DNA of 64,000 nt from Candidatus Omnitrophota bacterium (lineage in GTDB: Bacteria; Omnitrophota; Gorgyraeia; Zapsychrales; JANLHA01): assembly GCA_031423615.1 (NCBI GenBank), contig JANPFV010000104.1:32170-96169 (forward strand), given 5' to 3'. The notes under the pieces were generated by a model. The model did not search any database. It had not been told where the DNA came from and worked only from the letters and a program-made list of their open reading frames with translations. Position numbers and translations under genes: made by a program. This document shows, piece by piece, positions 2,017-57,059 of the stretch (its first letter is position 1; each line of letters opens with the position of its first letter).

Positions 2017-2017
2017 A

Positions 2018-5456: not shown

Positions 5457-5457
5457 A

Positions 5458-39418: not shown

Positions 39419-41395
39419 ATGGCCAGAGCCTTAGTGATTGTGGAGTCCCCCACCAAAGTCAAGACCATTAATAAAATTTTAGGTTCGAAATACAAGGTCC
39501 TGTCTTCCATGGGTCATTTGATTGATTTACCAAAGTCCAAACTGGGTGTGGATGTAGATCATGATTTTTCCGCCCAGCTTATCGTCATGCGCGCGAAACA
39601 AAAAACACTGACCGCGCTGAAAAAGGAAGCAAAAACCAAGGACGAGATTTATTTTGCGACCGACCCCGATCGTGAGGGTGAGGCGATCGGCTGGAATATC
39701 CGTCCGTATCTCGGCGAGGATAAGAAAGTTTTTCGGGTCACATTTCAGGAAATCACCAAAACGGCGGTCCTAAAGGCTTTTGAGCATCCTCGCAAGTTCG
39801 ACGGCAAAAAGATTGAATCCCAAATGGCGCGTCGCGTCCTTGACCGGATCGTCGGGTATATGATCAGTCCTTTGTTATGGAAAAAAGTGGGTTCGCGTCT
39901 GAGCGCCGGCCGCGTACAGTCCGTGGCTTTGCGCCTGATTGTCGACCGCGAACGGGCGATCAAGAATTTCCTGCCGCAGGAGTACTGGCTTATTGCCGTC
40001 GATTTGCAAAAAGCCGGCCACAAAGATGTCCTCACCGCCAATTTAGAGAAGATCAATAATGAAAAATTTGAGCTCGCGGAAAAAAACGCCACGGAAAATA
40101 TTGTTGAAGAAATCAAAAAGGAAGAATTTGTCATTTCCGATGTCATAGAAAAAGATATCAAACGCAATTCTGCCCCACCGTTTATTACCTCAACACTGCA
40201 ACAGGAGGCTTTCAACAAGCTGGGGTTTAATGCCAACCGCACGATGAAGATTGCCCAGGAGCTTTATGAGGGGATTGAATTAGGCGAAGGAGACCCCGTT
40301 GGTTTGATCACCTATATGCGGACCGACTCGGTTAATATCTCCAATGATGCTTTAAGTGCGGTCCGGGATTTTATTGAAAAAGAATACGGCGTTCGCTATC
40401 TTCCCGAAACGGCGAACCGTTATAAGTCTAAAAAATCGGCGCAAGAAGCGCATGAAGCGATCCGGCCTGCGGATGTCTTAAAGAAACCCGAAGACCTCAA
40501 GTCCTTTCTCGACGAAGACCAGTTTAAATTGTATTCTCTGATTTGGCGGCGATTTGTCAGTTCACAAATGATGCCGGCGATTTTTCGCAATAAACGTGTC
40601 GAAATTATGGCTGGACGCTTTCTTTTTTCAACATCGGGCTCGACCTTGGTTTTTGCCGGTTTCTTGACACTCGATCCGTCCGGGAATGACGCCGAAGGCA
40701 AGGTCGATCTATCGGTGTATTTTAAAAACGATCCATTGGACTTAAAGGAAGTCAAGCCCACCCAGCATTTTACCAAGCCGCCGCCACGTTTTTCGGAAGC
40801 CAGTTTGGTCAAAACACTCGAAGAGGAAGGGATCGGCCGGCCGAGTACATACGCGTCGATCATTTCGACGATTGTAGCGCGCAATTATGTTTTGCGCGAA
40901 CGCGGTTATTTTAGCGCGACCGAATTGGGAATGCGGATTTGTGATCTTCTTGTCGAATATTTTCCTACGATTATGGACATCGGGTTTACCGCCGGCATGG
41001 AAGAGCGCCTGGATCTCGTTGAGGAAGGGGAGTTGGAATATGCCCTTCTTCTGAAGGATTTTTACGGTCCCTTTAAAAAAGAGCTCGATCACGCCATGGC
41101 CACAATCGAGAAGACGCAGGAATTTATAGACGAGAAATGTCCGGAATGCGGCAAGCAAATGGTCATGAAGTGGGGCCGCCGTGGAAAATTTCTGAGCTGT
41201 TCCGATTTTCCCGCTTGCAAATTCGCTAAGCCTATTACAACGGGAATCAAATGCCCTCAGCCGGAGTGTGGCGGGGAACTTGTCAAGCGGCGGGGTAAAA
41301 GCGGGCGCGCATTTTATGGGTGCAGTAAATATCCTGCGTGTACATTTACGGCCAATGCTTTACCCGAAACCCCGGCCCCGGCCAATCCGGAATAG
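39419..41395 (+). CDS. topA: DNA topoisomerase I with C-terminal zinc ribbons
   Basis: TOPRIM N-terminus (ALVIVESPTKVKTI), catalytic region (ITYMRTDS), C-terminal CPECG / CPQPECGG zinc fingers. Confidence 0.95.
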   Translation: MARALVIVESPTKVKTINKILGSKYKVLSSMGHLIDLPKSKLGVDVDHDFSAQLIVMRAKQKTLTALKKEAKTKDEIYFATDPDREGEAIGWNIRPYLGEDKKVFRVTFQEITKTAVLKAFEHPRKFDGKKIESQMARRVLDRIVGYMISPLLWKKVGSRLSAGRVQSVALRLIVDRERAIKNFLPQEYWLIAVDLQKAGHKDVLTANLEKINNEKFELAEKNATENIVEEIKKEEFVISDVIEKDIKRNSAPPFITSTLQQEAFNKLGFNANRTMKIAQELYEGIELGEGDPVGLITYMRTDSVNISNDALSAVRDFIEKEYGVRYLPETANRYKSKKSAQEAHEAIRPADVLKKPEDLKSFLDEDQFKLYSLIWRRFVSSQMMPAIFRNKRVEIMAGRFLFSTSGSTLVFAGFLTLDPSGNDAEGKVDLSVYFKNDPLDLKEVKPTQHFTKPPPRFSEASLVKTLEEEGIGRPSTYASIISTIVARNYVLRERGYFSATELGMRICDLLVEYFPTIMDIGFTAGMEERLDLVEEGELEYALLLKDFYGPFKKELDHAMATIEKTQEFIDEKCPECGKQMVMKWGRRGKFLSCSDFPACKFAKPITTGIKCPQPECGGELVKRRGKSGRAFYGCSKYPACTFTANALPETPAPANPE

Positions 41396-41405
41396 TTATA
41401 GGAAA

Positions 41406-42284
41406 ATGGCCATGAACCGGTATGTTGAAAAATTTCTTTCTTTTCTAGATATTGAAAAGAACTATTCGCCGCACACGGTCCTGAATTATAAATCCGATCT
41501 TATAGAATTTATTGATTTTATCGCGGACAAACCTCTTGAGAAAGTTGAGTATAATGATTTTCGCCGCTTTTTAGCGCAAATGCGTTCCAACCAGTTTAAG
41601 CCCCGAACTCTGGCCCGCAAACTTTCAGCGATCCGCAGTCTTTTTAAATTTCTCCAGCGGGAAGGTTATCTAAAAGAAAATCCGTCCATCCTTTTAATGA
41701 CGCCGAAATTGGACAAAACTCTCCCAAAATTTCTTTCCGAGACTGAGATCACCCAGCTCATCGAAGCGCCGGAGATTACAATGTCCGCCGGTGCGCGGGA
41801 TCGCGCTATTTTTGAGACCCTTTACAGTTCCGGTCTGCGCGTGAGTGAATTGGTGGGACTCAACGTGGAGCATATTGATTTTATCGGTAATGTCATCAAG
41901 GTCATGGGAAAGGGCAAGAAAGAGCGCGTTGTTCCCATCGGCGACAAAGCTTTAAAAGAAATTCGCGGCTATTTGGCCGCGCGCCCGACGAAAGAAGGCG
42001 TTAATGAGCGGGCTGTTTTTTTGAATAAAAATGGTAAACGTTTGACGGACCGCAGTATCAGGAATATTATTAATAAGCATCTTCTGGCTACCAGTGTCAA
42101 GATGAAGGTGTCGCCGCATGTCCTTCGCCATTCTTTTGCGACACATTTGTTGGACCGGGGCGCCGACTTGCGCTCGGTGCAGGAACTTTTAGGGCATGTG
42201 AATTTATCCACGACGCAGATTTATACGCATCTGACGACGGAACGGTTGAAAAGCGTTTATGATAAAGCCCATCCTCATGCCTGA
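41406..42284 (+). CDS. xerC: Tyrosine recombinase XerC/XerD
   Basis: N-terminal SAM-like domain and C-terminal catalytic R...HxxR...Y (HVLRHSFATHLL...TQIYTH); ATG at 41406. Confidence 0.85.
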   Translation: MAMNRYVEKFLSFLDIEKNYSPHTVLNYKSDLIEFIDFIADKPLEKVEYNDFRRFLAQMRSNQFKPRTLARKLSAIRSLFKFLQREGYLKENPSILLMTPKLDKTLPKFLSETEITQLIEAPEITMSAGARDRAIFETLYSSGLRVSELVGLNVEHIDFIGNVIKVMGKGKKERVVPIGDKALKEIRGYLAARPTKEGVNERAVFLNKNGKRLTDRSIRNIINKHLLATSVKMKVSPHVLRHSFATHLLDRGADLRSVQELLGHVNLSTTQIYTHLTTERLKSVYDKAHPHA

Positions 42285-42305: not shown

Positions 42306-43589
42306 ATGATATTTTTTTATAATATTCTTTATTTTTTGGCTTTTATTTTTTATGTTCCCGTTTTATTCATTCGCGGGAAACTCCACCGCGGTTTTGTCCA
42401 AAGGTTGGGATTTCTGGGGCAGGAATTGCCTTATCGGTTTTATCAAAAAAAGAATATCTGGTTTCATGCGGTGAGTGTCGGCGAAATTTTAGCGATTGTC
42501 GGATTAGTCGAAAGAATCCGCTCAACTCATCCGGACCATCAGATTGTGATTTCCACGGTAACGCCGACGGGTTACGCCTTAGCGCAAAAACGGTTTAGAA
42601 AAGAGGACATTGTGATTTTTGCGCCGTTGGATTTTGGCTGGGCCGTAAAAAGTTTTATCAAGAGAATGAGGCCCGAGATTTTTATTGCCGCGGAAACTGA
42701 GATATGGCCTAATCTTTTAACGGTTTTGGCTCGTGCCGATGTCCCGATGGTCATGGTCAATGGCCGCATTTCTAACAAATCTTTTTATGGTTATCGCCGT
42801 TTTCAATTCTTTATCAGAAAGGTTTTACGTCCTTTCCGGGCTTTTTGCATGCAAAGCGCTTGCGACGCGGACCGTATTATCAATTTGGGCGCTTCAGCCA
42901 AAAATGTTTTTGTTTTAGGTAGTATGAAATTTGATGAGGGGGTTTCTGGCGAAGAAATCACGCTGGCCCGCTGCGGTTTTAAAAATGAAGCTTTAGTCTG
43001 GGTGGCGGGAAGCACTCATCCCGGCGAAGAAAAGATAGTGCTGGATATTTTTAAGAAATTGAAAAAGAAATTTTTTTTGCTGTCGTTAGTCATCGCACCG
43101 CGTCATATCGAGCGCTCGCCGGAGATTTGTGATTTGATTAAGGCGGAAGGTTTGACCGCGGCGGTTTTTTCGCGGATCAATCCGCCGGGGAGCGACCCGC
43201 AGGCCGTCGTGGTTGTCGACACGATTGGACACTTGAAATCCCTCTACCGTTTAGCCACGGTGGTTTTTGTGGGCAAAAGCCTCACGGGAAACGGCGGCCA
43301 GAACATCATTGAACCGGCTTTTTTTGCGAAACCGGTTATTGTCGGGCCGCATATGCAAAATTTTGCGGATATTGCCGAAATATTTTTAGAAGCGGGGGCG
43401 ATTTTACAAATCGAAACACCCGATGAGCTGCGAGAGGCTGTGAGCAAACTTTTAGCGTCGCCGGAATTGAGAACATCCTTGGGGGAGCGGGCTTTAGCCA
43501 CGATCAAGAAAAATGCCGGAGCGACCCACGGTACTGAGCGTATCATTTCCGGAATCCTCGGAGAAATCCATTTTCACAAACCGCAATAA
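42306..43589 (+). CDS. waaA: 3-deoxy-D-manno-octulosonic acid (Kdo) transferase
   Basis: N-terminal membrane anchor and GFxxRLG...HAVSVGE WaaA signature. Confidence 0.85.
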   Translation: MIFFYNILYFLAFIFYVPVLFIRGKLHRGFVQRLGFLGQELPYRFYQKKNIWFHAVSVGEILAIVGLVERIRSTHPDHQIVISTVTPTGYALAQKRFRKEDIVIFAPLDFGWAVKSFIKRMRPEIFIAAETEIWPNLLTVLARADVPMVMVNGRISNKSFYGYRRFQFFIRKVLRPFRAFCMQSACDADRIINLGASAKNVFVLGSMKFDEGVSGEEITLARCGFKNEALVWVAGSTHPGEEKIVLDIFKKLKKKFFLLSLVIAPRHIERSPEICDLIKAEGLTAAVFSRINPPGSDPQAVVVVDTIGHLKSLYRLATVVFVGKSLTGNGGQNIIEPAFFAKPVIVGPHMQNFADIAEIFLEAGAILQIETPDELREAVSKLLASPELRTSLGERALATIKKNAGATHGTERIISGILGEIHFHKPQ

Positions 43590-43669: not shown

Positions 43670-44734
43670 TTGTCTTCAATGCGAGACTATTTATATCGCG
43701 TGGTAACCGATCAGCAAGGCGGTAGATGCGCCGGGTTTATCCGTTTTATTTTACTGATTTTATCATTTTTCTATCGCGGAGTCGTGGCCGTGAGGAATTT
43801 CTTTTATCGGAAGGGCATTTTGCGTTCGGTTGATTTGGGAAAGATCGTAATCAGCGTCGGAAATATCACATGGGGCGGGGTTGGCAAAACTCCTTTTGTT
43901 ATTTTGCTTGTAAAGCATTTGCACAGTCGCGGATTCAATCCTGCGGTTTTAACCCGCGGATATATGAAAAACGCCGCGTCTTCTTGCAGCGATGAAGCCG
44001 CCATGATGCGGCAATATATTCCCGGCGTGGCTATCGGTGTAGGCGGCGACCGAATCCAAGCGAGCAAAAGAATTTTGTCCGTTTACCCTGTGGATGTTTT
44101 CATCCTCGATGATGGTTTTCAACACCGCAGAGTGAGACGTCATTTGGAAATTGTTCTTGTGGATTCGGCTAATCCTTTCGGGAATGGCCAGCTGATTCCC
44201 GCCGGCATTCTGCGCGAGCCGCTGAGCGCTTTAAAACGGGCCCACATTATTGTTTTGACGAAGTCGGATTTTAATCCCTCAATGACGCAGGTCTTAGAAG
44301 AGCGTATCCGGCGGATCAACCCGGTTTGCGTTATTGGCTGGGCCGCGCACGCCCCGCAAGCCTTAGAAGAAATTTTTTCCGGGCGTCAAGAGCCCCTTGC
44401 GTATTTGCGCGATTGCAAAATTTTTATTTTTTGCGCCGTGGGAGACCCGCAGAGTTTTACAGAAACCTTGCTGGGGACGGGGGCGGTTGTTGAAAAGGGT
44501 TTTGTTTTTCAGGACCATTATGTTTATTCTGCCAAAGATATTCGGATGATGGTTGAACAGGCAGAAAAGTCGGGGGTCAGGAACTTTGTGACGACGGCAA
44601 AAGACGCCATAAAAGTTATCCCGTTAAAAGAGCATTTTGGCATCTGCCGTTTTTGGGTTTTGAAAATTGAAATTGAACTGCGAAATGGAAAGGACAAAGT
44701 TTTTGGGCGAATTGATCATTTATTGGGCCGTTAG
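43670..44734 (+). CDS. lpxK: Tetraacyldisaccharide 4'-kinase
   Basis: VISVGNITWGGVGKTP P-loop. Confidence 0.9.
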   Translation: MSSMRDYLYRVVTDQQGGRCAGFIRFILLILSFFYRGVVAVRNFFYRKGILRSVDLGKIVISVGNITWGGVGKTPFVILLVKHLHSRGFNPAVLTRGYMKNAASSCSDEAAMMRQYIPGVAIGVGGDRIQASKRILSVYPVDVFILDDGFQHRRVRRHLEIVLVDSANPFGNGQLIPAGILREPLSALKRAHIIVLTKSDFNPSMTQVLEERIRRINPVCVIGWAAHAPQALEEIFSGRQEPLAYLRDCKIFIFCAVGDPQSFTETLLGTGAVVEKGFVFQDHYVYSAKDIRMMVEQAEKSGVRNFVTTAKDAIKVIPLKEHFGICRFWVLKIEIELRNGKDKVFGRIDHLLGR

Positions 44735-46667
44735 GATATTGGGTCTTTTTGTCCAGGTTTTGCCCATCGGGCTTTCTTTGCGATTGGGAAAAATTATGGG
44801 CATGACCGCGTATTATCTAAACGGTAAGCATCGGCGGATTGTTTATTCCAACTTGCGGATCGCTTTTGCTAAGAGCAAATCTCCCGAAGAAATTCGCCGC
44901 ATCGCCAAAGAAACTTTTGCAAATTATGGACAAAATGTGATTGAACTGTTTCGTTTTCCTATGCTGGATACGGTCAAATTTCATGAATTTGTTGAGGTTA
45001 AAGGTCAAGAACATGTGGATGAAGCGATCAAACAAGAGAAAGGCGTTATTTTGCTGGCTATGCATTTTGGCTCTTGGGAAATGGCCAATCTGATCGGTTC
45101 GACGCTCCGCCACCCTTATAAAGTATTGGTTAAAGCGCAAACCAAGAATTCCCGCTTGGGGGAATTGCTCAACTCTTTTCGTCGCAGCGGCGGCACGACG
45201 GTGATCAAAAGGGGTTTGGGCACGCGCGAACTTTTAAAGAGTTTGAAAAATAATGAAGTTGCGGCTTTGGTCGTAGACCAAGGGGGAAGAGACGGGGTTT
45301 TGGTCCCATTTTTCGGGAAAGAAGCCAGTATGTCGTCGGGTGCAATCCGTATCGGATTGAAGATGGGTGTGCCGCTGTGCTTTGTCACCATTGTCCGCAA
45401 GCAAGGGCCGTATCATCTTTTAGTCATTGAAAAACCTTTGGTTTTGAGCCATACGGGAAATGAAGAGCGGGATGTTGTCGCCAACTTGATTAGAATTACG
45501 GCCCTCATGGAAAAAGCCATTTTACAAAATCCTGCGGAATACATGTGGTTTTATAAAATTTGGAAATATTCCCGTGATTCTGTCGTCGGTATTTTGACCG
45601 ACGGGAAGGCTGGACACTTGCGTCAATCGGAAGCGGTAGGCGGGCTTTTGTCACAGGCCCTCAAAGAGCGGGGGAGTAACACTCAACGGCCTATTTTACA
45701 TGTCCATTTTAAAAGTCAATGGCGGGGAAAATTTTGTGCGCTGGCGGCTTGTGTCGGCAATCTTTTACAGCACCGCGGCCGGATATGGCTTTTGCGTTTT
45801 TGTTTGACTAAGGATTCTTTCCGCCAGTTGATGTCGGTCAAACCCGATTTTCTGGTCTCCTGCGGTTCGGCGGTCGCCGGGGTCAATTATCTTTTGTCTT
45901 TGGAGCATGGGGCCAAGAATGTGGTTATTCTCAAGCCGGGGATGTTAAACATCCGGCATTTCGATATGGTCATTTTACCCCGTCATGACACGCTCCGACG
46001 TCAACATTGGCCCGCGAATGTTATCGTGACTGAGGGTGCTCCCAATTTGATTACCCCCAGCTATCTGGCCGAACAAACAGCGGCGCTTTTAAAACGTTTT
46101 TCTCATCTTAAGAGCGGGGATAATTTTAAAATCGGCGTCCTTTTGGGTGGCGACACACCGGAATTTGTTTTAAGCGAACAGCGGGTCAGGATTTTGATCC
46201 ACCAGTTGATCGAGACGGCTGAAGAAACTCAGGCGGATATTCTTTTGACAACTTCCCGTCGCACGTCGGCAAAAATAGAAAATATGATTATGCGGGAATT
46301 GAGTAAATATCGCCGCTGTAAATTTCTAGTCATTGCTAATCGGGAAGATGTCCCGCAAGCTGTGGGCGGAATTTTGGGGCTGGCGGATGTTATTGTGGTT
46401 TCCGGTGACAGTATTTCTATGATTTCGGAAGCGGCCAGCGCCGGGAAAAAAGTTGCGGCCTTTTTTGTGGAACACCGCCGTGGCGTTCCTTTTGAAAGGA
46501 CCAAGCACGGCCGTTTCTTGGAACGGCTCAACAAAGACGGGCATATCCTTTCCGCGGATGTCAAATATATGAAGGACTCCCTGTATAAGCTGATTAAGAA
46601 TAAAGTCCAAACCAGGAAAATAGATGATGATGCGGTGATTCTGGAGAGCTTACAGAAATTTATTTAA
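44685..46667 (+). CDS. Fusion protein: LpxL/LpxM-type lipid A late acyltransferase (N) + ELM1/DUF1022-like domain (C)
   Basis: The first ~300 aa have LPLAT features (TM helix, MHFGSWEMA HX4D-like motif); the last ~350 aa begin ILTDGKAGHLRQSEAVGGLL, typical of ELM1-family proteins; one continuous ORF. ATG at 44685 preferred over the TTG at 44667. Confidence 0.7.
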   Translation: MERTKFLGELIIYWAVRILGLFVQVLPIGLSLRLGKIMGMTAYYLNGKHRRIVYSNLRIAFAKSKSPEEIRRIAKETFANYGQNVIELFRFPMLDTVKFHEFVEVKGQEHVDEAIKQEKGVILLAMHFGSWEMANLIGSTLRHPYKVLVKAQTKNSRLGELLNSFRRSGGTTVIKRGLGTRELLKSLKNNEVAALVVDQGGRDGVLVPFFGKEASMSSGAIRIGLKMGVPLCFVTIVRKQGPYHLLVIEKPLVLSHTGNEERDVVANLIRITALMEKAILQNPAEYMWFYKIWKYSRDSVVGILTDGKAGHLRQSEAVGGLLSQALKERGSNTQRPILHVHFKSQWRGKFCALAACVGNLLQHRGRIWLLRFCLTKDSFRQLMSVKPDFLVSCGSAVAGVNYLLSLEHGAKNVVILKPGMLNIRHFDMVILPRHDTLRRQHWPANVIVTEGAPNLITPSYLAEQTAALLKRFSHLKSGDNFKIGVLLGGDTPEFVLSEQRVRILIHQLIETAEETQADILLTTSRRTSAKIENMIMRELSKYRRCKFLVIANREDVPQAVGGILGLADVIVVSGDSISMISEAASAGKKVAAFFVEHRRGVPFERTKHGRFLERLNKDGHILSADVKYMKDSLYKLIKNKVQTRKIDDDAVILESLQKFI

Positions 46668-46683: not shown

Positions 46684-48783
46684 ATGAGGGTTTTGCAAAT
46701 ATTGCCGGAATTGCGTGTCGGCGGAGTGGAAACGGGCACGGTCGATTTTGCCAAATATCTGCGGGAAAATGGCCATCACGCTGTTGTTGTTTCTCATGGC
46801 GGACCTCTCGTGCAGGAACTGGCCGTAGCCGGTGTTACTCATTACGCCTTGCCAGTGCATAAAAAAAATATTTTTATCATTTTAAATTGTATCAAATCTT
46901 TGCGCGACATTATTTTGACGGAAAAAATTGACATTGTTCATGCCCGTTCGCGCGTGCCGGCGTGGATTGCTTTTTTTGCTTGCCGCAAAACACCCGCCGA
47001 ATTTATAACGACATGCCATGGCTATTATTCTAAGCATATGTTTAGCAAAATCATGGGTTGGAGCAAATTGATCATCGTCCCCAGCCAGGTTATTGGTCGG
47101 CACATGGTCGACGACTTTAAAGTGGCGGCAGAAAATGTCCGTTGTATCCCGCGCAGTGTGGACTTGCAGAGATTTGCTCCGGCTTTGCGGGGACGCTCCC
47201 CTTCACAAGCCAACCCCGTGATTTCAATTGTGGGACGGATCACGCCCTTAAAGGGCCACGTGCATTTTTTAAGGGCCATGGCCACGGTGGTCAGAAAAAT
47301 GCCTCAGGTGAAGATTTGGATTATCGGGGATGCGCCGGTGGGCAAGGAAGCGTACCGCGAAGAATTGCAGGTCTTGGTCCGCAGGCTGGGCCTTTCCGAC
47401 TCTGTCGATTTTTTGGGCACGCGGCAAGATGTCCCGCAGCTTTTAGCTAAAACGGACCTACTCGTTTTGTCGACCATTGTGCCGGAAGCTTTCGGACGCG
47501 TCATTCTGGAGGCGCAGGCGGTAGGGGTTCCGGTTGTCGCTACATCCGTCGGGGGAGTTGTTGAAATTATCGACCAAGAAAAGACCGGCCTTTTGGTCAT
47601 GCCCAAAGACAGTGACGCGATGGCCGAGGCCTGCCTAAGGATTTTGTCCGACAAAAAACTGGCCCAACAAATCATTGTCGGCGCCCGGCAAAAATTAGAA
47701 ACCCAATTTACCTTGCGTCACATGGCAGAAAGCACAATCAAGGTTTATGAAGAACTTTTGCGGTCTTTGCGGATTTTGGTGATCAAGATCAGTTCGGTGG
47801 GAGATGTGATTTTGATCACCGCGTCCTTAAAGGCGCTGCGCCAAAAATTTCCCCAGGCACGGATTTGTGTGTTAGTCGGTGAAGCGTCCCGCAAGATTTT
47901 GAGCCGTTGTCCTTATGTAGATGAATTGATCGTCGTGGATTTTAAAAAACGCGACCGGGGAATTAAAGGGCTTTGGCAGTTGGGACGGAAACTGTCCCAT
48001 TATAAGTTTGATAAAGTTATTGATTTGCAAAATAATAATCGCAGTCATTGGCTTTCTTTCCTAAGTTTTCCCAAGGAAAGTTATGGTTTTAAGCGCGGGC
48101 GTTTTGGTTTTCTTTTGACCCATCCCGTTAAGCAGATCAATCCTAACCTTCCTCCTGTTGAGCACCAGTACCAAATTCTCAATCTTTTAGGATTGAATTA
48201 TAACAGCGAGAACCTTCTTGAATTATGGCCCTCAGCAAAGGAATCAGAAAGTGCTTTACGTCTTTTGGAATCGGAGTGGGTCGGGGCCAAGACAAATGTC
48301 GTTGGCGTTAACATCGCCGCATCACAACGCTGGCCAACCAAAAATTGGCCCGTTGAATATATAGCGCGGCTTTGTGATATTCTCGCGGCAAAAAATATCC
48401 GTGTTCTCGTGACCGGTATGGAAAAAGACCGGAACATGGCTAAACAACTTTCGTTGCTCACGAAAACAAAGCCAGCTATACTGATAGGTAAAACCGAATT
48501 GATGGAACTCGCGGCCGTAATCAAGCATTGCAAGGTTTTTATTTCGCCCGATTCTGCACCACTTCATATTGCGGCGGCCATGAATGTTCCCCTCATAGCG
48601 CTCTTCGGTCCGACGTCGTCTCAGAGGCATAGGCCTCCGGCCAAGACGGCGGTGATCATGGAAAAGAAACCACCGTGCGCTCCCTGCTACAGCACGCAAT
48701 GTAAGGTGAAGACCCATCTTTGTATGCGCGATATTACTCCCGAGGAAATTGCCGAGCGCGTTTATCAGCTGATAAATCTATGA
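46684..48783 (+). CDS. Fusion protein: GT4 glycosyltransferase (N) + GT9 ADP-heptose:LPS heptosyltransferase (C)
   Basis: N-terminal MRVLQILPELRVGGVETGTVDFAKYL... GT4 fold with EAFGRVILEAQAVGVPVVA motif; from about residue 360 RILVIKISSVGDVILITASLKALRQKFP is a heptosyltransferase N-terminus. Confidence 0.7.
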   Translation: MRVLQILPELRVGGVETGTVDFAKYLRENGHHAVVVSHGGPLVQELAVAGVTHYALPVHKKNIFIILNCIKSLRDIILTEKIDIVHARSRVPAWIAFFACRKTPAEFITTCHGYYSKHMFSKIMGWSKLIIVPSQVIGRHMVDDFKVAAENVRCIPRSVDLQRFAPALRGRSPSQANPVISIVGRITPLKGHVHFLRAMATVVRKMPQVKIWIIGDAPVGKEAYREELQVLVRRLGLSDSVDFLGTRQDVPQLLAKTDLLVLSTIVPEAFGRVILEAQAVGVPVVATSVGGVVEIIDQEKTGLLVMPKDSDAMAEACLRILSDKKLAQQIIVGARQKLETQFTLRHMAESTIKVYEELLRSLRILVIKISSVGDVILITASLKALRQKFPQARICVLVGEASRKILSRCPYVDELIVVDFKKRDRGIKGLWQLGRKLSHYKFDKVIDLQNNNRSHWLSFLSFPKESYGFKRGRFGFLLTHPVKQINPNLPPVEHQYQILNLLGLNYNSENLLELWPSAKESESALRLLESEWVGAKTNVVGVNIAASQRWPTKNWPVEYIARLCDILAAKNIRVLVTGMEKDRNMAKQLSLLTKTKPAILIGKTELMELAAVIKHCKVFISPDSAPLHIAAAMNVPLIALFGPTSSQRHRPPAKTAVIMEKKPPCAPCYSTQCKVKTHLCMRDITPEEIAERVYQLINL

Positions 48784-49880
48784 AAATACTTCTTCTTTCC
48801 ACTCATCTGAATGTCGGCGGGATCACCACCTATCTTTTTGCGCTTTCCCGTCAATATCTTGACAAAGGGCATGATGTTTTTTTAGGTACGGCCGGCGGGG
48901 CCAGGGCCGAAGAATTTTCGAAATTAGGAGTACATCTTATTGATGCGCCGGTTGGGACCAAGGTGGAAGTTCACCCCCAGATTTATAAAGCTGTGCCCCG
49001 CTTGCTGAAAGTGATCCGCAAAGAGCAAATCGATATTATCCATTCCCATACAAGGGTGACGCAATTTTTAGGGCAAGTGTTGAGTTTCTTTTCTGGTGTG
49101 CCCTATGTTGCTACATCTCACGGATTTTATAAAACGCATTGGTTCCGCCGGACTTTTCCCTGTTGGGGGCGTGCGGTCATCGCGATCAGTCAGCCGGTGA
49201 AGGACCATTTGATCAATGATTTCAAAGTGCCTGCCGACCGGGTTTTTCTGGTACCCAACGGTATAGACTTACAATCTTTTCAACAGGTTGATCAGCTCGC
49301 CAAAGAACGAGCCCGGAAAAAATTTAATATTACGCAAACCCCGGTTATTGGAATGGTTTCGCGTTTAGCGGATGTGAAAGGTCACAGTGTATTGATTGAT
49401 GCTATGCCGAACATCATCAAATCTTTTCCAAAAGCCTTGCTGTTTCTCGCCGGAGAAGGGAAGATTAAAGACCAACTTAAGGCGCAGGTGAAACATATGG
49501 GTCTTGAGAATAATGTGACCTTTGCGGCGGTCTTTAATTCCAGCGGTTCTGTTCTTATGCTTTTTGATGTGTTTGTGATGCCGTCTCTAGATGAAGGGTT
49601 TGGTCTCTCGGGGATGGAAGCGCAATTGTGTGGTTTGCCTATCGTGGCTTCCAATGTCGGCGGTATTCCTTTCTTTGTGTTTCATGAAGAAACCGGCCTC
49701 TTGGTCCCGCCTAAGGATCCACAGGCCTTAGCGCAAGCTATCCTCCGATTTTTAAAAGATCCGCAATTTTCTGAAAGGATTGGACAACAGGCGCGCAAAT
49801 TTATTCAGGAAAATTTTTCTTCTGAAATCATGGCCAGAAAAACTTTACAGATGTACGAAAAGGTTTTAGCCGGGAAATGA
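48780..49880 (+). CDS. GT4-family glycosyltransferase
   Basis: MKILLLSTHLNVGGITTYL N-terminus, EGFGLSGMEAQLCGLPIVAS C-terminal motif; ATGA overlap with the upstream gene. Confidence 0.8.
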   Translation: MKILLLSTHLNVGGITTYLFALSRQYLDKGHDVFLGTAGGARAEEFSKLGVHLIDAPVGTKVEVHPQIYKAVPRLLKVIRKEQIDIIHSHTRVTQFLGQVLSFFSGVPYVATSHGFYKTHWFRRTFPCWGRAVIAISQPVKDHLINDFKVPADRVFLVPNGIDLQSFQQVDQLAKERARKKFNITQTPVIGMVSRLADVKGHSVLIDAMPNIIKSFPKALLFLAGEGKIKDQLKAQVKHMGLENNVTFAAVFNSSGSVLMLFDVFVMPSLDEGFGLSGMEAQLCGLPIVASNVGGIPFFVFHEETGLLVPPKDPQALAQAILRFLKDPQFSERIGQQARKFIQENFSSEIMARKTLQMYEKVLAGK

Positions 49881-50908
49881 GCATCCCTTCACAAGATTTA
49901 AAGCGTATTCTCGTCGTCAATGTGAATTGGCTGGGGGATGTTATTTTTTCTATTCCCGTCTTTAAGGCGCTACGTCAATATTATCCTGCGGCCCGCATCA
50001 GTTGCTTTGCGGTCCCGCGGGTCGTCGAGATTTTGCAGTGTGTCCCGCAGATTGATGACATTATTGTTTATGATGAAAAAGGGAAGGACCGCGGCTTCTT
50101 GGCTAAAATGATTATGGTTCACCACATCCGACAACAAAAATTCGACGCGGTTTTTTTATTGCATGGCTCTGGTTCGCGGGCGTGGTTAATGGTGTTGGCC
50201 GGGATTCCGGTCCGGGTGGGATACGCCAGCAAGAAAATGAAATTTTTAACGCATGCGATTGAACCGCTCAGCGATGACATTCACAAAGCGGATGTTTATT
50301 CAAATCTGATTGCCGCATATGGTTTGCCAGTTGCGGACAAAACTTCTTCTTTGTGTGTCCCGCAAGAAGCTCGGGAACAAACCGACAAAATTCTTGGCGC
50401 CGCCGGGATTCTTTTAAACGAGCCTTTTATTGTTGTCCATACCAGCGGCAATTGGGATTTGAAACGCTGGCCGCCGGAGAATTGGGCGCAATTGATTCGT
50501 ACGGTGGTGAGAAATCTTAAGATGAAAGTGGTTATTTCCGAAGGTCCGAAAGAAATCGGCTGGGCCCATGACATTGCGGTAAAATCCGGAGTCAATCCCG
50601 TTGTCTTGGCCGGCCAAACCAATTTGCTTCAACTCTTGGCGTTGTTAGAAAAAGCCGTGATAGTCATCAGCGCGGATTCCGGACCATTACATATGGCCAG
50701 TTGTGTCAGCCAAAATATTTTGGGGCTTTACGGACCGACAATGCCGGCTACAACCGGTCCGCGCGGGAAGGCCAAGGCATTAATTTTGCATAAAGACGTC
50801 TCTTGCAACCGCGCGTCTTGTTATTTTCTTCAATGTCCTAACAATGTGTGCATGAAAGCCATCACCGTTGAGGAAGTCGTTGAAAGCTTAAGGCCCTATG
50901 TTCGATAA
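49877..50908 (+). CDS. ADP-heptose:LPS heptosyltransferase (GT9)
   Basis: KRILVVNVNWLGDVIFSIPVFKALRQYYP signature; C-terminal SADSGPLHMA. Confidence 0.8.
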   Translation: MSIPSQDLKRILVVNVNWLGDVIFSIPVFKALRQYYPAARISCFAVPRVVEILQCVPQIDDIIVYDEKGKDRGFLAKMIMVHHIRQQKFDAVFLLHGSGSRAWLMVLAGIPVRVGYASKKMKFLTHAIEPLSDDIHKADVYSNLIAAYGLPVADKTSSLCVPQEAREQTDKILGAAGILLNEPFIVVHTSGNWDLKRWPPENWAQLIRTVVRNLKMKVVISEGPKEIGWAHDIAVKSGVNPVVLAGQTNLLQLLALLEKAVIVISADSGPLHMASCVSQNILGLYGPTMPATTGPRGKAKALILHKDVSCNRASCYFLQCPNNVCMKAITVEEVVESLRPYVR

Positions 50909-51869
50909 AAGCAAAATAAAAAAGATCCTCGTTGTTTCTCTGAGTAATATCGGCGATGTGATTTTGACTTTTCCGGTCATTGATATTTTAATGCGTGATT
51001 TCCCCGACACACAAATCGATGTGGTTGTCGGTCCCAAAGCTGAAAATTTAATTAAGGGACATCCTGGTTTGAGAAAAGTTTCTCTTTACCGCCGTGAACA
51101 GTCTCCTGTCGATACCTTGAAATGGTTGCAGGAGATGAAGACTCAACACTATGATCTGGCGGTAGATTTACGAAATTCCGCCATTCCTTTTTTGGTTTTC
51201 GCGAAACATAAAACGCCACTTATGATAGCGCGGCCCAAAGGCCATATGCGTCAGCAGCATTTATCGCGGTTAAAATTGGTATACGATTACTCCTCGGAGT
51301 CCCGCCCTAAAGAGGCCTTTTTTATTTCAGAGAATGACAAAAATGTTGTGGGAAAACTTTTAAATGCGATAGGAAGTTTTGTCGTTATCGCTCCGGGGTC
51401 GCGGGCTGAAAACAAGCGCTGGCGCGAAGATGGTTTTGCCAAGCTCGCTGACTATCTGGGGGATCAGTACAACGTAAAGATTGTGTTTGTGGGGGATGAA
51501 AACGATATTGAAGTTGTGGCCCGCATCAAGAGTTTAATGAAAAATCATTCTTTGGATTTGACCAACCAGTTGACGCTTGCACAATTGGGAGGGGTGTTAA
51601 CATTGTCCCGTCTGGCGGTGGTCAATGACAGTGCGCCCATGCATTTGGCGAGTTATCTGGATGTTCCCGTGGCTGCATTTTTCGGTCCCACCGATCCCAA
51701 GAAATATGGGCCGTGGGGTAAAGAAAATATTGTCATTCAAAAAAATGGCGATTGCGCGGCTTGCCACGGTAAAAAGAATTATCTTCATGACTGCATGCAG
51801 GCCATTGGTTTTGAAGATGCGTTTTCTATTTTAGAGTCGTGGCTTAAAGGGACTTTAAATGGGAAATAA
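50898..51869 (+). CDS. ADP-heptose:LPS heptosyltransferase (GT9)
   Basis: KKILVVSLSNIGDVILTFPVIDIL signature; VNDSAPMHLA. Confidence 0.8.
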   Translation: MFDKSKIKKILVVSLSNIGDVILTFPVIDILMRDFPDTQIDVVVGPKAENLIKGHPGLRKVSLYRREQSPVDTLKWLQEMKTQHYDLAVDLRNSAIPFLVFAKHKTPLMIARPKGHMRQQHLSRLKLVYDYSSESRPKEAFFISENDKNVVGKLLNAIGSFVVIAPGSRAENKRWREDGFAKLADYLGDQYNVKIVFVGDENDIEVVARIKSLMKNHSLDLTNQLTLAQLGGVLTLSRLAVVNDSAPMHLASYLDVPVAAFFGPTDPKKYGPWGKENIVIQKNGDCAACHGKKNYLHDCMQAIGFEDAFSILESWLKGTLNGK

Positions 51870-52902
51870 AAAAATGAACATTCTTGTCGTGCGGACCGAC
51901 CGGATCGGGGATGTGGTTTTGACCACCGCCGCCGTGCGCGCCTTGCGTAAAAATTATCCCGACAGCCGCATTGCCATATTGGTCGCTCCCGGAACGCAGG
52001 ATTTGGTGGAGGGTAATCCCGACATTGACGAAGTCATTGTCCATGACCGTAGGATCCAGTGGAGCTTGTTTAAGCAGGCGATGAATTTGCGCCAGCATAA
52101 ATTTGACTGGGCGATCATTTTTCATACCAAGAAGTGGACGAATCTTTTGTGTTTTTTCGCGGGCATTCCCCGTCGAACCGGTTATTGCAATGAAAAGCTG
52201 GGATTTCTTTTGACGGAGCGTGTTCCCGATGATCGCGCAGCCGGAATCAAGCATGAAGCGCAATACTGTTTAGACATTCTCAATTATGTGGGTGTGCCCG
52301 CGCCCTTGTCGGAAATGCAATGTGTCATTCCTATAAATGCTCAATCGGACGCATGGGCGCAGAAGTGGTTTGCGGATCATAATGTCAACCCCAAGGAATT
52401 CATTATTGTCAATCCTTCGGCCAGCGATCCGGGACGGCAATGGCCGGCGGAACGTTTTGCTAAGATTATTGAAATTCTTCAATCCAAAAATATCGGTCCA
52501 ATTGCGGTCATCGGTACAAAAAAAGATGTGGCCGCGGAAAAAGTCCTCTCCTTAGTCAAGTCAACCGATACGATCCGGGTTCTTGACTTACGAGGGCAGA
52601 CGACTATGACGCAGCTCATTGCCCTTCTGCGCCAATGCCGGATGCTTATTTCCAACGATACCGGTCCGGTCCATATTGCCGCCGCTCTGAAAAAACCCGT
52701 GGTCTCGATCTTTACCCGCGATGAACCAGGTATAAACCCCGAAAGATGGCGGCCATTGGGTTCAACGGTCAAGGTTGTTATAACTCCTGTTAAGGGAATG
52801 ATTTCCAATTATAAAGCAAAGGCCATCGATTATAGTTATTTGAACGCCATTCCCGTTGAGAGTGTCTGGGAAGCTGTTGACGCCCTCTTGAAACTGTGTT
52901 AA
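51859..52902 (+). CDS. ADP-heptose:LPS heptosyltransferase (GT9)
   Basis: MNILVVRTDRIGDVVLTTAAVRALRKNYP signature; SNDTGPVHIA. Confidence 0.8.
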   Translation: MGNKKMNILVVRTDRIGDVVLTTAAVRALRKNYPDSRIAILVAPGTQDLVEGNPDIDEVIVHDRRIQWSLFKQAMNLRQHKFDWAIIFHTKKWTNLLCFFAGIPRRTGYCNEKLGFLLTERVPDDRAAGIKHEAQYCLDILNYVGVPAPLSEMQCVIPINAQSDAWAQKWFADHNVNPKEFIIVNPSASDPGRQWPAERFAKIIEILQSKNIGPIAVIGTKKDVAAEKVLSLVKSTDTIRVLDLRGQTTMTQLIALLRQCRMLISNDTGPVHIAAALKKPVVSIFTRDEPGINPERWRPLGSTVKVVITPVKGMISNYKAKAIDYSYLNAIPVESVWEAVDALLKLC

Positions 52903-53985: not shown

Positions 53986-54720
53986 ATGAAGGCCATGGGT
54001 GTCATCCCGGCACGTTGGGCTTCGACCCGTTTCGAAGGGAAAATGCTCGCCGTTTTAAATGGACGTCCCTTGATTGAACACGTTTGGCGGCAGGCCAAAC
54101 GGTGCCATGTTCTTGAAGATATTCTCATTGCCTGCGACGACGACCGGATTTTAAAAACGGCCCGGAGTTTTGGTGCCAACGCCGTGAGGACAGCTTCCGA
54201 TCATGAGTCGGGAACGGATCGCATTGCCGAAGCAGTGACAAGAATTTCTACGGATGTGGTGATAAATATTCAAGGTGATGAACCCTTGATCGATCCGTCC
54301 GTGATCGACCGCTTGGCCAAAGTATTGCTCGCTGACCCAGCGCTTCCCATGGCGACGGTGATCAAACGGATCACAAAGGAAGACGATCTTGAAAATCCTA
54401 ATGTCGTCAAAGTGGTGATTGATCTTCAGCAGAACGCTCTGTATTTTTCTCGCTCGCCGATGCCCTTTCAGCGAGAGAAGAAGCCGTTTCAAGACAGTAT
54501 TTATTATAAGCACTTGGGTCTCTATGGTTATCATAAAGATTTTTTGTTAGGGTTTAAAACATTGCCTTATTCCGCATTGGAAGCAACAGAAAAATTAGAG
54601 CAGCTTCGCGTTTTGGATGCGGGTTATAAAATTAAAACGATTGAAACCGATCATGACAGCATCGGCGTTGACACCCCGGAAGATCTTCAGCGCGTCGCAG
54701 GGATGATGAAAGGCAAATAG
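53986..54720 (+). CDS. kdsB: 3-deoxy-manno-octulosonate cytidylyltransferase
   Basis: GVIPARWASTRFEGK ... NIQGDEPLI signature. Confidence 0.9.
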   Translation: MKAMGVIPARWASTRFEGKMLAVLNGRPLIEHVWRQAKRCHVLEDILIACDDDRILKTARSFGANAVRTASDHESGTDRIAEAVTRISTDVVINIQGDEPLIDPSVIDRLAKVLLADPALPMATVIKRITKEDDLENPNVVKVVIDLQQNALYFSRSPMPFQREKKPFQDSIYYKHLGLYGYHKDFLLGFKTLPYSALEATEKLEQLRVLDAGYKIKTIETDHDSIGVDTPEDLQRVAGMMKGK

Positions 54721-55548
54721 ATGGTCAAGAAAATCAAATTGGGAAAAATTATTTTCGGCGGGAGCAATCCCTTTGTTCTTATCGCGGGACCGTGCGTTAT
54801 TGAAAGCAAGGATATTGTTTTTAAGATTGCCGAAAAATTGCTCAAGATGACGCGTCAACTGGATATTCCTTTTGTTTTTAAGGCCAGCTATGACAAAGCC
54901 AATCGTACGTCGATGGGGTCTTTCCGCGGCCCGGGTCTGTCCGCGGGTTTGAAAATTTTAGCGCAAGTAAAAAAAGAATTTGGCGTGGCGGTTTTAAGCG
55001 ATGCTCACAGCGCTGAAGAAATGCCTTGTGCCGGCGAAGTTTTGGATATTATCCAGATCCCGGCGTTTCTCTGCCGGCAAACCGACATTGTTGTTGCGGC
55101 CGGAAAAACCGGTAAAATCATTAATGTTAAAAAAGGGCAATTCCTTGCTCCGTGGGATATGGCATCCGTCGTAAAAAAGCTGGAAAAAACCGGTAATGAT
55201 AAAATTCTTTTAACGGAGCGGGGAGTAAGTTTTGGTTATAATAATTTAGTCACAGATTTTCGTTCGCTGGCGATCATGCGTTCGTTAGGTTATCCCGTCG
55301 TTTTTGACGCGTCGCACAGCGTCCAGCAGCCGGGCGGATTGGGTGAAACATCGGGCGGCAAAAGCGAATTCATTCCCCTTTTGGCGCGTTGCGCTGTCGC
55401 CGCAGGATGCGATGCCATTTTTACCGAAACCCATTTGGACCCTTCGCGGGCCCTTTCCGACGGGCCCAACATGATCCCGTTAGGCCAATTGGCCAGCCTT
55501 TTAAAAAAATTAAAGGAAATAGATGCGATCGTGAAGAAATCCATTTAA
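54721..55548 (+). CDS. kdsA: 2-dehydro-3-deoxyphosphooctonate aldolase (Kdo8P synthase)
   Basis: Full-length KdsA similarity (FVLIAGPCVIES, FKASYDKANRTS). Confidence 0.9.
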   Translation: MVKKIKLGKIIFGGSNPFVLIAGPCVIESKDIVFKIAEKLLKMTRQLDIPFVFKASYDKANRTSMGSFRGPGLSAGLKILAQVKKEFGVAVLSDAHSAEEMPCAGEVLDIIQIPAFLCRQTDIVVAAGKTGKIINVKKGQFLAPWDMASVVKKLEKTGNDKILLTERGVSFGYNNLVTDFRSLAIMRSLGYPVVFDASHSVQQPGGLGETSGGKSEFIPLLARCAVAAGCDAIFTETHLDPSRALSDGPNMIPLGQLASLLKKLKEIDAIVKKSI

Positions 55549-55581
55549 TGACCAACGCTTAAATACCATTTGAATATATTT

Positions 55582-56538
55582 ATGTTAAACAAAGCCAAAG
55601 AAGTTATTGAGATTGAAGCGCAGGCTGTGCGGGCCTTGGCCCAGCGCCTCGATAAGAATTTTATTAAAGCCATCGATGTGATCGTCAAGTGCCAAGGGCG
55701 GGTCATTGTGGTGGGAATGGGCAAGACCGGTCTCATCGGCCGGAAGATTGCGGCCACATTATCATCGACGGGAACGCCCAGTATTTTTATTCACAGCGCG
55801 GAAGCTGTGCATGGCGATTTGGGGCAGGTCACCCCGGCGGATGTTTTGATCATCATTTCCAACAGCGGTGAGACCGAAGAGACAAATCGTCTTTTGCCGT
55901 TATTAAAAAAGATCGGGGCGATAGCGATTGCCATGACGGGAAATCGCAAATCCAGTTTGGCAAAATTCAGCGATGTCGTTCTGGATGTTTCCGTCGAGAA
56001 AGAAGGTTGTCCTCTGGGATTGGCTCCGATGGCCTCGACGACGACGACCTTGGTCATGGGCGATGCTTTGGCGGCCTGTTTGATTGTCAAAAAGGGTTTT
56101 CGCAAAGAGGATTTTGCATTTTATCATCCGGGGGGAGCGTTAGGCCGCCGTTTGCTGCTCAAGGTCGAAGACTTGATGCGCAAGGGTGAGCATTTCCCGA
56201 AAGTGGGAAAGGAAAGAAAAGTCCAAGATGTGCTTTTGGCGATCACCAAGGCGCGCTGCGGCTCGGCGTGCATTGTCGACGCCAAAGGTCGATTGCTGGG
56301 TATTTTTACCGACGGCGATCTGCGCCGGCATTTGGAAGAAGGCTCGGATGTCTTGCAGAAAACTGTCAAAGGGGTTATGACCAAGAACCCGACAACGATT
56401 TTGCAAAGCAAACTGGCCGCGGAAGCTTTTGCTCTTTTGAAAGAAAAGAAGATCGATGAGCTTCCTGTCGTCGATGACAAAGGACGGGCCGTGGGGCTCT
56501 TGGATATTCAGGATCTTTTGAAAGCGGGGTTAATTTAA
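55582..56538 (+). CDS. kdsD: Arabinose-5-phosphate isomerase (SIS + tandem CBS)
   Basis: SIS domain (VIVVGMGKTGLIGRKIAATLSSTGTPS) plus two CBS domains; ATG at 55582 preferred over the TTG at 55570. Confidence 0.85.
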   Translation: MLNKAKEVIEIEAQAVRALAQRLDKNFIKAIDVIVKCQGRVIVVGMGKTGLIGRKIAATLSSTGTPSIFIHSAEAVHGDLGQVTPADVLIIISNSGETEETNRLLPLLKKIGAIAIAMTGNRKSSLAKFSDVVLDVSVEKEGCPLGLAPMASTTTTLVMGDALAACLIVKKGFRKEDFAFYHPGGALGRRLLLKVEDLMRKGEHFPKVGKERKVQDVLLAITKARCGSACIVDAKGRLLGIFTDGDLRRHLEEGSDVLQKTVKGVMTKNPTTILQSKLAAEAFALLKEKKIDELPVVDDKGRAVGLLDIQDLLKAGLI

Positions 56539-57059
56539 TGGATTCCATGTTGAAGGAAAGAATTAAGAAAATTAAAGTTCTGGCCCTGGATATCGATGGC
56601 GTTTTAACCGACGGCAAAATTATCGTGGACAGTCAAGGTGGGGAAATAAAGAATTTTGATGTGCAGGACGGGTTTGGCATGGTGGTGATGCGTAAGGCGG
56701 GATTTAAAATTGCGATCATCACGGCGCGCAATTCCCGGCCGGTGGATTTTCGCGCCCGGGATTTGCACGTCGACAAAGTTTATCAGGATGCTTTTCCTAA
56801 GATAGAATATTACAAGCGTATGCTAAAAGACTTGGGTGTTTCCGACGAAGACGTTTGTTATATGGGGGATGATCTTCCCGACCTGGGTGTTTTAAAACAA
56901 GTCGGTTTTGCCGTCAGTGTCCCCAATGGTGTCGAAGAAGTCAAAAGAACCGTGCACTATATCACGCATAAAGCTGGCGGCCATGGTGCGGTCAGGGAAG
57001 TCATTGAGATCATTTTAAAAACGCAGGACAAATGGGACGGGATTTTAGCGGCCTTATGA
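56538..57059 (+). CDS. kdsC: Kdo-8-phosphate phosphatase (HAD family)
   Basis: LALDIDGVLTDGKI motif. Confidence 0.85.
   Translation: MDSMLKERIKKIKVLALDIDGVLTDGKIIVDSQGGEIKNFDVQDGFGMVVMRKAGFKIAIITARNSRPVDFRARDLHVDKVYQDAFPKIEYYKRMLKDLGVSDEDVCYMGDDLPDLGVLKQVGFAVSVPNGVEEVKRTVHYITHKAGGHGAVREVIEIILKTQDKWDGILAAL

Follow-up and report, generated by a model that had tools for sequence, protein, structure and literature searches.

A stretch of 64,000 nucleotides from Candidatus Omnitrophota bacterium (GenBank assembly GCA_031423615.1, contig JANPFV010000104.1, positions 32,170 to 96,169 of the forward strand), in its entirety referred to here as the window, contains a gene that unites in one polypeptide an LpxL-like lipid A late acyltransferase and a C-terminal glycosyltransferase (GT) domain of the ELM1/GtrOC1 family. 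The fusion is a real and long-conserved gene of the Omnitrophota, and we have little doubt that it is genuine and that both of its halves are active. Its product is probably a bifunctional, membrane-anchored enzyme that would acylate and also glycosylate Kdo2-lipid IVA (Kdo, 3-deoxy-D-manno-oct-2-ulosonic acid), the sugar added probably being Kdo. A reading made earlier from the letters alone (the sequence-only reading) had proposed such a fusion at 44685-46667, and the proposal stands. The plus strand contains a single stop-free frame that begins at 44667 with TTG or at 44685 with ATG and ends with the stop codon at 46665-46667. Translation from the ATG yields 660 residues, and the N-terminus obtained from this start aligns with those of the homologues.

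Annotation of the two halves with Pfam placed both well above the cutoffs. Residues 12-294 match PF03279 (Lip_A_acyltrans; E 3.8e-46, 158 bits, cutoff 22.3, profile positions 15-294 of 295) and residues 309-625 match PF06258 (Mito_fiss_Elm1; E 1.1e-49, 169.7 bits, cutoff 27). For comparison, the PF06258 scores of the Acinetobacter baumannii family member KdoT and of a Sinorhizobium meliloti homologue, both described below, are 203.5 and 254.7 bits. The features by which the sequence-only reading had recognized the halves were all found: the acyltransferase motif (AMHFGSWEMA, residues 125-134), the N-terminal membrane anchor (hydrophobic residues 8-30) and the beginning of an ELM1/DUF1022-like domain (ILTDGKAGHLRQSEAVGGLL, residues 303-322). 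Residues 8-30 are the sole strongly hydrophobic 19-residue stretch of the fusion protein (Kyte-Doolittle maximum 2.0), and AlphaFold2 (AF2) predicts a helix at residues 2-25. The C-terminal half displays a GT-B fold with two Rossmann-like halves. The AF2 model of the full-length protein has a predicted template modeling score (pTM) of 0.80, and the predicted local distance difference test (pLDDT) reaches 88-91 over residues 281-310, the region of the junction.

A search of 5.8 billion proteins gave 697 matches. Among the matches listed, 120 of 120 are 521-670 residues long, contain both Pfam domains and are 48-72% identical to the query, and all of the named ones among these 120 belong to Candidatus Omnitrophota/Omnitrophica. 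When 1.84 billion representatives were searched exhaustively with HMMER and the matches considered as clusters at 50% identity, the majority of the best 150 clusters were full-length fusions; at least ~130 clusters carry the fusion, and among the most divergent ones the named members are again Omnitrophota. Scanning one genome of each GTDB species for the clade-specific peptide patterns WFYKIWK and AMH[FSY]GSWE identified 80 loci that match residues ~1-660 at 36-71% identity, a number that counts fusion carriers only and gives neither the share of Omnitrophota without the fusion nor a view of other phyla. The 80 loci come from Omnitrophota metagenome-assembled genomes (MAGs) or from coarsely labelled MAGs, such as "uncultured Planctomycetales". 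A free-standing PF03279 gene directly upstream of lptC and lptB was observed in a MAG labelled Omnitrophica (L094, 5001-5933), which would mean that the fusion is missing from some lineages or that there is a second late acyltransferase.

The 78 full-length fusions that were aligned have a median identity to the window protein of 53% in the N-terminal and 45% in the C-terminal half (overall 36-72%). Invariant in all 78 are H127, E132, D198, G310, H311, Q314, H434, S524-R525-R526-T527 and E582, and the motifs SRRT, DGKxGH, HD and DSxSMxxEA are invariant or almost so. From WFYKIWKY, with which the acyltransferase ends, to the start of DGKxGH the spacer measures 10 residues without exception in all 78 sequences, and its flanks are invariant. 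This fixed spacer, together with the confident model of the junction, suggests a constrained interface and thus a defined orientation of the two halves relative to each other.

The sequence-only reading had itself named the possibility that two separate genes were joined by a frameshift or an assembly error at about 45580-45620. The chance that this is so is practically negligible because no stop codon interrupts the common frame of the two halves in any of the 81 loci from independent assemblies, one of them a contig of 3.36 Mb. The presence of both domains in all of the listed database homologues and the almost invariant junction sequence likewise speak against an artefact. Nothing in its favour was found at this locus; split gene calls in another clade (L089, L090; see below) show that breaks can occur in the low-complexity linker of that clade.

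The N-terminal half resembles LpxL, LpxM and LpxP in its PF03279 domain, N-terminal anchor, HX4E dyad and C-terminal aromatic W..K.WK motif, and the gene adjoins waaA and lpxK. It differs from the characterized enzymes in being only 21-28% identical to them and in carrying a glycosyltransferase at its C-terminus. A profile match to A. baumannii LpxM (5KN7; E 3.6e-19) places HFGSWE over HFGTWE, and the dyad aligns with H122/E127 of LpxM, of which 5KNK is the E127A catalytic-residue mutant. Foldseek assigns the half to the PatA/LpxM fold (E ~1e-13, target-normalised TM-score 0.66-0.83). The half is most similar to LpxL_Ab among the sequences of the A. baumannii chromosomes and to lpxL among those of E. 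coli, and it is these best matches only that favour an identity as LpxL over LpxM or LpxP. In the NCBIfam scan the N-terminal half stayed below all equivalog cutoffs (the best, PRK08419, 153.9 bits with a cutoff of 248; TIGR02207, 103.5 with a cutoff of 297.8), so that acyl-chain and position specificity cannot be assigned; the same scan gave no match for the C-terminal half.

With regard to the C-terminal half, the sequence-only reading regarded ELM1 as an orphan family, a view that has been overtaken by the characterization of KdoT in 2024-2025 (PMC10936431, PMC12856342). The ELM1-like protein A1S_2903 (GtrOC1) of A. baumannii was shown genetically in 2024 to be required for anything beyond Kdo2 (PMC10936431), and in December 2025 it was identified biochemically as KdoT, the CMP-Kdo:Kdo2-lipid IVA KdoIII transferase (PMC12856342). 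Its gene is the first of the A. baumannii outer-core locus. KdoT prefers Kdo2-lipid IVA to the hexa-acylated form of Kdo2-lipid A and is inactive on lipid IVA; it is membrane-associated without a transmembrane helix, is complemented by a Rickettsia homologue and needs a conserved SRRT motif, in which R180 is dominant (PMC12856342). After KdoT has acted, the GT4 enzyme GnaT (LpsB) adds N-acetylglucosaminuronic acid (GlcNAcA) (PMC12856342). Kdo2-lipid IVA, the substrate of KdoT, is also that of E. coli LpxL (PMC10936431, PMC12856342). The proposal that the ELM1-like half acts on a lipid A/Kdo substrate thus agrees with the biochemistry of KdoT, which uses the same Kdo2-lipid IVA as LpxL. The further expectation that the fusion would help to assign a function to the family holds insofar as the fusion corroborates and extends the assignment; it does not originate it because KdoT had already been characterized.

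For the comparison, the KdoT sequence was taken from an A. baumannii replicon in PLSDB (L082:5986-6876), where the gene lies directly after ilvE; the numbering of D8, H13, H109, D110, R179 and R180 in the recovered protein agrees with PMC12856342. PLSDB files whole chromosomes as plasmids (NZ_CP077849.1, NZ_CP064203.1 and NZ_CP104448.1, of 3.7-4.1 Mb, as well as several E. coli and Proteus records); these were the source here of the KdoT, LpxL and LpsB sequences and are a trap for plasmid statistics. The C-terminal half of the window protein and KdoT are 28% identical over 297 columns (E 2e-19), and KdoT is the only match of this half in the A. baumannii chromosomes. Common to both are DGKAGH, P(R/E)HD, (I)LTTSRRT and DS(I/V)SM..EA; S524-R525-R526-T527 align with S178-T181 of KdoT, and all residues highlighted in PMC12856342 are kept. 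The two proteins also share PF06258, the GT-B fold, the context of LPS core synthesis and a GT4 enzyme of the GnaT/LpsB type next in the pathway or operon. They differ in that KdoT is a free-standing peripheral protein of 296 residues encoded at the start of an outer-core locus, whereas the window domain, a predicted glycosyltransferase, has 360 residues with an insertion and an extension, is covalently joined to LpxL and is surrounded by core genes that include four GT9 domains.

An ELM1/GtrOC1 gene with SRRS in place of SRRT was also observed on pSymB of S. meliloti (L083, 3767-6771), in a glycosyltransferase cluster beside a paralogue of kdsB, the gene of CMP-Kdo synthetase. This linkage suggests that the family may also use CMP-Kdo in the synthesis of capsule-type polysaccharides.

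The genes around the fusion (Table 1) are those of an LPS operon. The order WaaA, LpxK, LpxL-ELM1, GT4-GT9, GT4 and three GT9 is almost universal in those loci whose contig reaches that far, and GT4-GT9 is, with few exceptions, likewise one uninterrupted frame in the related loci with contigs of sufficient length. The GT4 domain of this second fusion is 34% identical to A. baumannii LpsB/GnaT over the full length (218 bits, E 2e-72) with the EX7E motif kept, compared with only 100 bits for the other GT4 of the operon, and the GT9 domain passes the TIGR02195 cutoff for heptosyltransferase II. When all of PLSDB was searched with the GT4 domain by tblastn, LpsB was the top match overall and, within each A. 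baumannii chromosome, the one best-matching site. By sequence comparison, the GT4 domain and LpsB/GnaT are reciprocal best matches, and the operon encodes LpxL::KdoT-like followed by GnaT-like::GT9. The KdoT-like and GnaT-like domains, whose genes are linked, may act jointly. In A. baumannii, lpxL (A1S_0431) adjoins lpsB (A1S_0430), with which it is possibly co-transcribed (PMC4442142); the adjacency was seen also in the A. baumannii locus L093. In both organisms a late acyltransferase gene thus lies in physical linkage with that of a KdoIII/GlcNAcA-branch enzyme. In A. baumannii, however, LpxL stands unfused beside GnaT and KdoT is encoded elsewhere, whereas the Omnitrophota have both in fused form, the KdoT-like domain with LpxL and the GnaT-like domain with a GT9 domain.

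Table 1. Features of the fusion gene, of its product and of the surrounding operon; positions refer to the window except in the last row, where they refer to the contigs named
Feature	Position	Strand	Remarks
Fused open reading frame, LpxL-like acyltransferase + ELM1/KdoT-like GT-B glycosyltransferase	44685..46667	+	660 aa; 50-nt overlap with the 3' end of lpxK
Predicted inner-membrane anchor, hydrophobic helix GELIIYWAVRILGLFVQVLPIGL	44706..44774	+	aa 8-30
Lipid A late acyltransferase domain	44718..45566	+	Pfam PF03279, aa 12-294
HFGSWE, HX4E catalytic dyad H127/E132	45063..45080	+	aligned to HFGTWE of 5KN7
Junction YMWFYKIWKYSRDSVVGILTDGKAGH	45540..45617	+	acyltransferase end WFYKIWKY, 10 residues, then first strand and DGKxGH of the GT-B domain
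ELM1/GtrOC1-family GT-B domain	45576..46664	+	structural domain aa 298-660; Pfam PF06258 aa 309-625
SRRT motif S524-T527	46254..46265	+	R526 is the counterpart of KdoT R180
xerC-like recombinase	41268-42284	+	
waaA/kdtA	42306-43589	+	would make the Kdo2-lipid IVA substrate with LpxK
lpxK	43670-44734	+	overlaps the fusion by 50 nt
GT4-GT9 fusion gene	46684-48783	+	699 aa; 16 nt 3' of the LpxL-ELM1 fusion
GnaT/LpsB-like GT4 domain	46684-47775	+	aa 1-~360; GT9 heptosyltransferase domain next
Second GT4	48720-49880	+	
Three GT9 genes	49877-52902	+	
PfkB kinase	52945-53982	+	345 aa
kdsB, kdsA, kdsD, kdsC (CMP-Kdo supply)	53986..57059	+	same co-directional gene string
LptC/LptA-like gene, then ABC ATPase gene (probably lptB)			after kdsC in the same LPS operon
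~270-aa protein encoded after elm1 or after the fusion, Poribacteria-type lineage	L088 10104-10907; L091 4795-5628; L092 7935-8771; L090 3136-4029		

The survey of LpxL-ELM1 linkage that the sequence-only reading had proposed revealed, besides the phylum-wide fusion in the Omnitrophota and the GnaT-like GT4 downstream of it, a second clade of fusions and adjacent unfused genes in a Poribacteria-type lineage. The second clade (P0251, P0293 and others; 660-714 residues) shows ~29% identity to the window protein, with which it is collinear also in the insertion and the C-terminal extension of the ELM1 domain, and has a long, variable, low-complexity linker and a neighbourhood unlike that of the window. 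Its ELM1 half is on average 45% identical to standalone proteins versus 32% to that of the window, and its LpxL half is 40-66% identical to LpxL proteins of ~300 residues, several of them from Candidatus Poribacteria MAGs; the taxon of the clade is inferred only from the fact that its closest unfused relatives are Poribacteria MAGs. In 4 of 4 contigs examined, free-standing lpxL is followed immediately on the same strand by elm1, with gaps of +98, +23, -34 and -8 nt; L091, a Poribacteria MAG, and L092 contain complete overlapping pairs, and in the split calls of L089 and L090 the ELM1 part lacks its N-terminus, so these two pairs may be broken fusions. The flanking genes of the fused L088 and the unfused L091 are the same (62-70% identity), from which it follows that the fusion of the second clade arose in place from adjacent genes. 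The lineage (L088-L092) shares with the window the order of the two families and the ELM1 subfamily with insertion and extension, and differs from it in that the genes are separate and overlapping, or fused by the long variable linker, and are preceded by two methyltransferases and not by waaA-lpxK. In this lineage, elm1 or the fusion is always succeeded by a conserved protein of ~270 residues that has no Pfam match and is 56-73% identical between loci (Table 1).

In simple neighbor-joining (NJ) distance trees of the ELM1 domain, all fusions formed one group in 0 of 100 and 0 of 300 bootstraps. The pair was therefore probably fused twice independently, as judged from these trees; a single ancient fusion that was later split several times is the less probable course. 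Standalone elm1 does not lie beside lpxL in three other genomes that are large or from Poribacteria (L085-L087), so the linkage is specific to lineages and not universal. In the Poribacteria MAG L087 (4103-7131), two DUF3108_like (PF21347) genes lie immediately upstream of the standalone ELM1 gene, and the metagenomic protein P0326 (640 residues) consists of DUF3108_like fused to ELM1; DUF3108_like is a second recurrent partner of the ELM1 family.

From these data the following mechanism is proposed. The fusion protein would reside at the cytoplasmic face of the inner membrane, held there by its one N-terminal helix, and would receive Kdo2-lipid IVA from WaaA and LpxK, which are encoded upstream. 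As an LpxL-type late acyltransferase, the N-terminal half would transfer a secondary acyl chain from acyl-acyl carrier protein (acyl-ACP) to Kdo2-lipid IVA, and the C-terminal half, as expected from its family, would attach to the Kdo region of this lipid a sugar taken from a nucleotide donor. We are fairly confident that the C-terminal half is a transferase of the inner core with Kdo2-lipid IVA or Kdo2-lipid A as substrate, and for its donor we lean, with more reserve, toward CMP-Kdo, as in KdoT. The GnaT-like GT4 domain encoded by the next gene might then extend the residue added by the C-terminal half, as GnaT does after KdoT in Acinetobacter, and the GT4 and GT9 domains of that protein would together continue the core. 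The benefit of the fusion would lie in a membrane tether for a glycosyltransferase that has no anchor and in a 1:1 ratio of two enzymes with one substrate. Kinetic coupling of the halves is conceivable; the flexible linker of the second clade implies that proximity alone is enough. A stricter form, in which a rigid enzyme obligatorily couples acylation and glycosylation and does not release the intermediate, is improbable, as is a reaction of the lpxL-linked ELM1 subfamily that is new to the family, for example the addition of the second Kdo where WaaA is monofunctional or the decoration of lipid A itself; the two together are covered by this estimate.

Several observations weigh against a KdoT-like function of the C-terminal half. 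Its identity to KdoT is only 28%, the NJ trees group the Omnitrophota domain with KdoT in only 51% of the bootstrap replicates, and two elements of the lpxL-linked ELM1 subfamily, an insertion in its N-terminal Rossmann half and a C-terminal extension of ~64 residues, are absent from KdoT. With few exceptions, the ELM1-family proteins examined possess SRRT and DGKxGH, which therefore mark an active enzyme, not Kdo as donor; the outer-core loci of Acinetobacter contain further ELM1-family transferases (GtrOC14, 19 and 22) of unassigned specificity. Judging by the four GT9 domains of the operon, the core may contain heptose and would then differ from that in which KdoT works. In classical cores heptose occupies O5 of KdoI, the position taken by KdoIII in Acinetobacter, so the linkage may differ. 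A UDP-sugar dehydrogenase (Gna-like) was not found in the window, and to our knowledge the LPS structure of no Omnitrophota is available. The low identity, the insertion and extension, the family-wide motifs, the further Acinetobacter transferases and the four GT9 domains would fit an enzyme with two active halves whose ELM1 domain adds another nucleotide sugar to the inner core or to lipid A, or the second Kdo if WaaA is monofunctional. We consider this unlikely since the sole characterized members of the family, A. baumannii KdoT and the complementing Rickettsia homologue, use CMP-Kdo, the GnaT-like reciprocal best match is encoded directly downstream, the S. meliloti family member is linked to a kdsB paralogue and the operon encodes the whole CMP-Kdo pathway. 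Still less can be said for a catalytically dead ELM1 domain that serves LpxL as a scaffold or regulator. Plant ELM1 has a non-enzymatic role, the recruitment of a dynamin (cited in PMC10936431), and the authors of the mBio study of 2024 considered a non-catalytic role of A1S_2903 before its biochemistry was known (PMC10936431). Against such a role in the window protein stand the later proof that KdoT is an enzyme (PMC12856342) and the conservation of SRRT, DGKxGH, HD and DSxSMxxEA across 78 sequences as little as 36% identical, which make a dead domain very improbable.

A different question is why the two halves were fused. Loss of a stop codon between overlapping genes could have joined them as a neutral by-product of tight operon packing in genomes of small size, with the halves remaining uncoupled. 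Separate lpxL and elm1 overlap by 8-34 nt, so that one mutation can fuse them, and the long variable linker of the second clade indicates that a fixed geometry is not required. Neighbouring genes of the operon are fused as well: GT4-GT9 everywhere and, in some Omnitrophota, WaaA and LpxK (one stop-free frame of 814 codons, L066, about 1-2500 of the locus) and two GT9 domains (L066, 436 codons; L067, 589; L070, 611), the frames of these three loci being stop-to-stop frames only. These genomes may therefore tend to fuse adjacent pathway genes in general, with no special coupling behind it, which also counts against the proposed mechanism. The 10-residue junction with its invariant flanks and confidently predicted structure speaks against a neutral origin, as does the occurrence of fusions in two clades that do not group in the ELM1 tree (0 of 400 bootstraps), and tethering is an obvious benefit since KdoT has no anchor of its own. 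We regard a neutral origin as plausible but less likely than not; it concerns the reason for the fusion and not the functions of the halves, and is partly compatible with a bifunctional enzyme acting on Kdo2-lipid IVA.

Elsewhere in the window, a normal lpxB (PF02684, E 2e-94) at 10864-12015 on the minus strand led us to reject a role of the ELM1 domain as a substitute for LpxB. Beside lpxB lies a GFO_IDH_MocA oxidoreductase gene (12020-13048, minus strand), divergent from the gene of an MsbA-like ABC transporter (13083-14879). GnnA, which makes the 2,3-diamino-2,3-dideoxy-D-glucose (GlcN3N) precursor for lipid A, belongs to the GFO_IDH_MocA family, and the lipid A backbone might accordingly contain 2,3-diamino sugars. 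Just downstream of lpxB on the minus strand, a DUF4914 gene (8962-10845; full-length match, E 6e-301) is followed by that of a small putative carbonic anhydrase (Pro_CA_2; 8555-8965, minus strand). The PfkB kinase of the heptose pathway, encoded in the operon, is devoid of an adenylyltransferase half, and a separate NTP_transferase gene is located at a great distance, at 24258-24998; in E. coli, HldE is bifunctional and combines kinase and adenylyltransferase. A complete Bat/MoxR-type cluster occupies 113-8018 on the plus strand and encodes a MoxR AAA ATPase, a DUF58 protein, a BatA-like protein, VWA proteins, a TPR protein, BatD and a TPR-SH3 protein.

Neither the two domain families nor the KdoT/GnaT pathway is new. 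In the literature, we found no paper that describes an LpxL-ELM1 fusion or LPS biosynthesis of Omnitrophota, none on "DUF1022", and no published lipid A acyltransferase joined to a core glycosyltransferase. Multidomain glycosyltransferases of LPS and capsule synthesis, such as dual-module KpsC and the multi-module O-antigen enzymes, likewise combine consecutive enzymes of a pathway in one polypeptide, but there the glycosyltransferase modules are joined to each other. New are the architecture of a lipid A acyltransferase with a core glycosyltransferase and its conservation across the Omnitrophota, the second fusion clade, the unfused lpxL-elm1 pairs of the Poribacteria-type lineage and the adjacent GnaT-like domain. 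The fusion protein is already present in public databases under automatic names, either "ELM1/GtrOC1 family putative glycosyltransferase" or "KDO2-lipid IV(A) lauroyltransferase". Since each name covers only one half, recognition of the bifunctionality would correct the annotation.

The finding corroborates and extends the KdoT result of 2025 and overturns nothing. As evidence of the Rosetta-stone type, the fusion supports independently the assignment derived from KdoT that the bacterial ELM1 family acts on the lipid used by LpxL, and with it the claim that Kdo addition to the inner core is not always performed by WaaA alone. It carries the KdoT-type claim from Acinetobacter and Rickettsia to the Omnitrophota and the Poribacteria-type lineage and suggests that the unusual inner-core route of Acinetobacter exists also in uncultivated phyla. 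Should the halves instead form an obligatorily coupled enzyme, or the lpxL-linked subfamily catalyze a new reaction, the uncultivated phyla would possess a distinct and widespread inner-core pathway. KdoT and GnaT of A. baumannii display a puzzling mutual dependence in vivo. The KdoT-like and GnaT-like domains of the window, side by side and each fused to an LPS enzyme (LpxL and GT9, respectively), point to a physically organized assembly line of the inner core, and the two fusions are natural constructs with which the dependence could be probed. For the LPS of the Omnitrophota, they predict an extra Kdo-type residue with a GnaT-type substituent.

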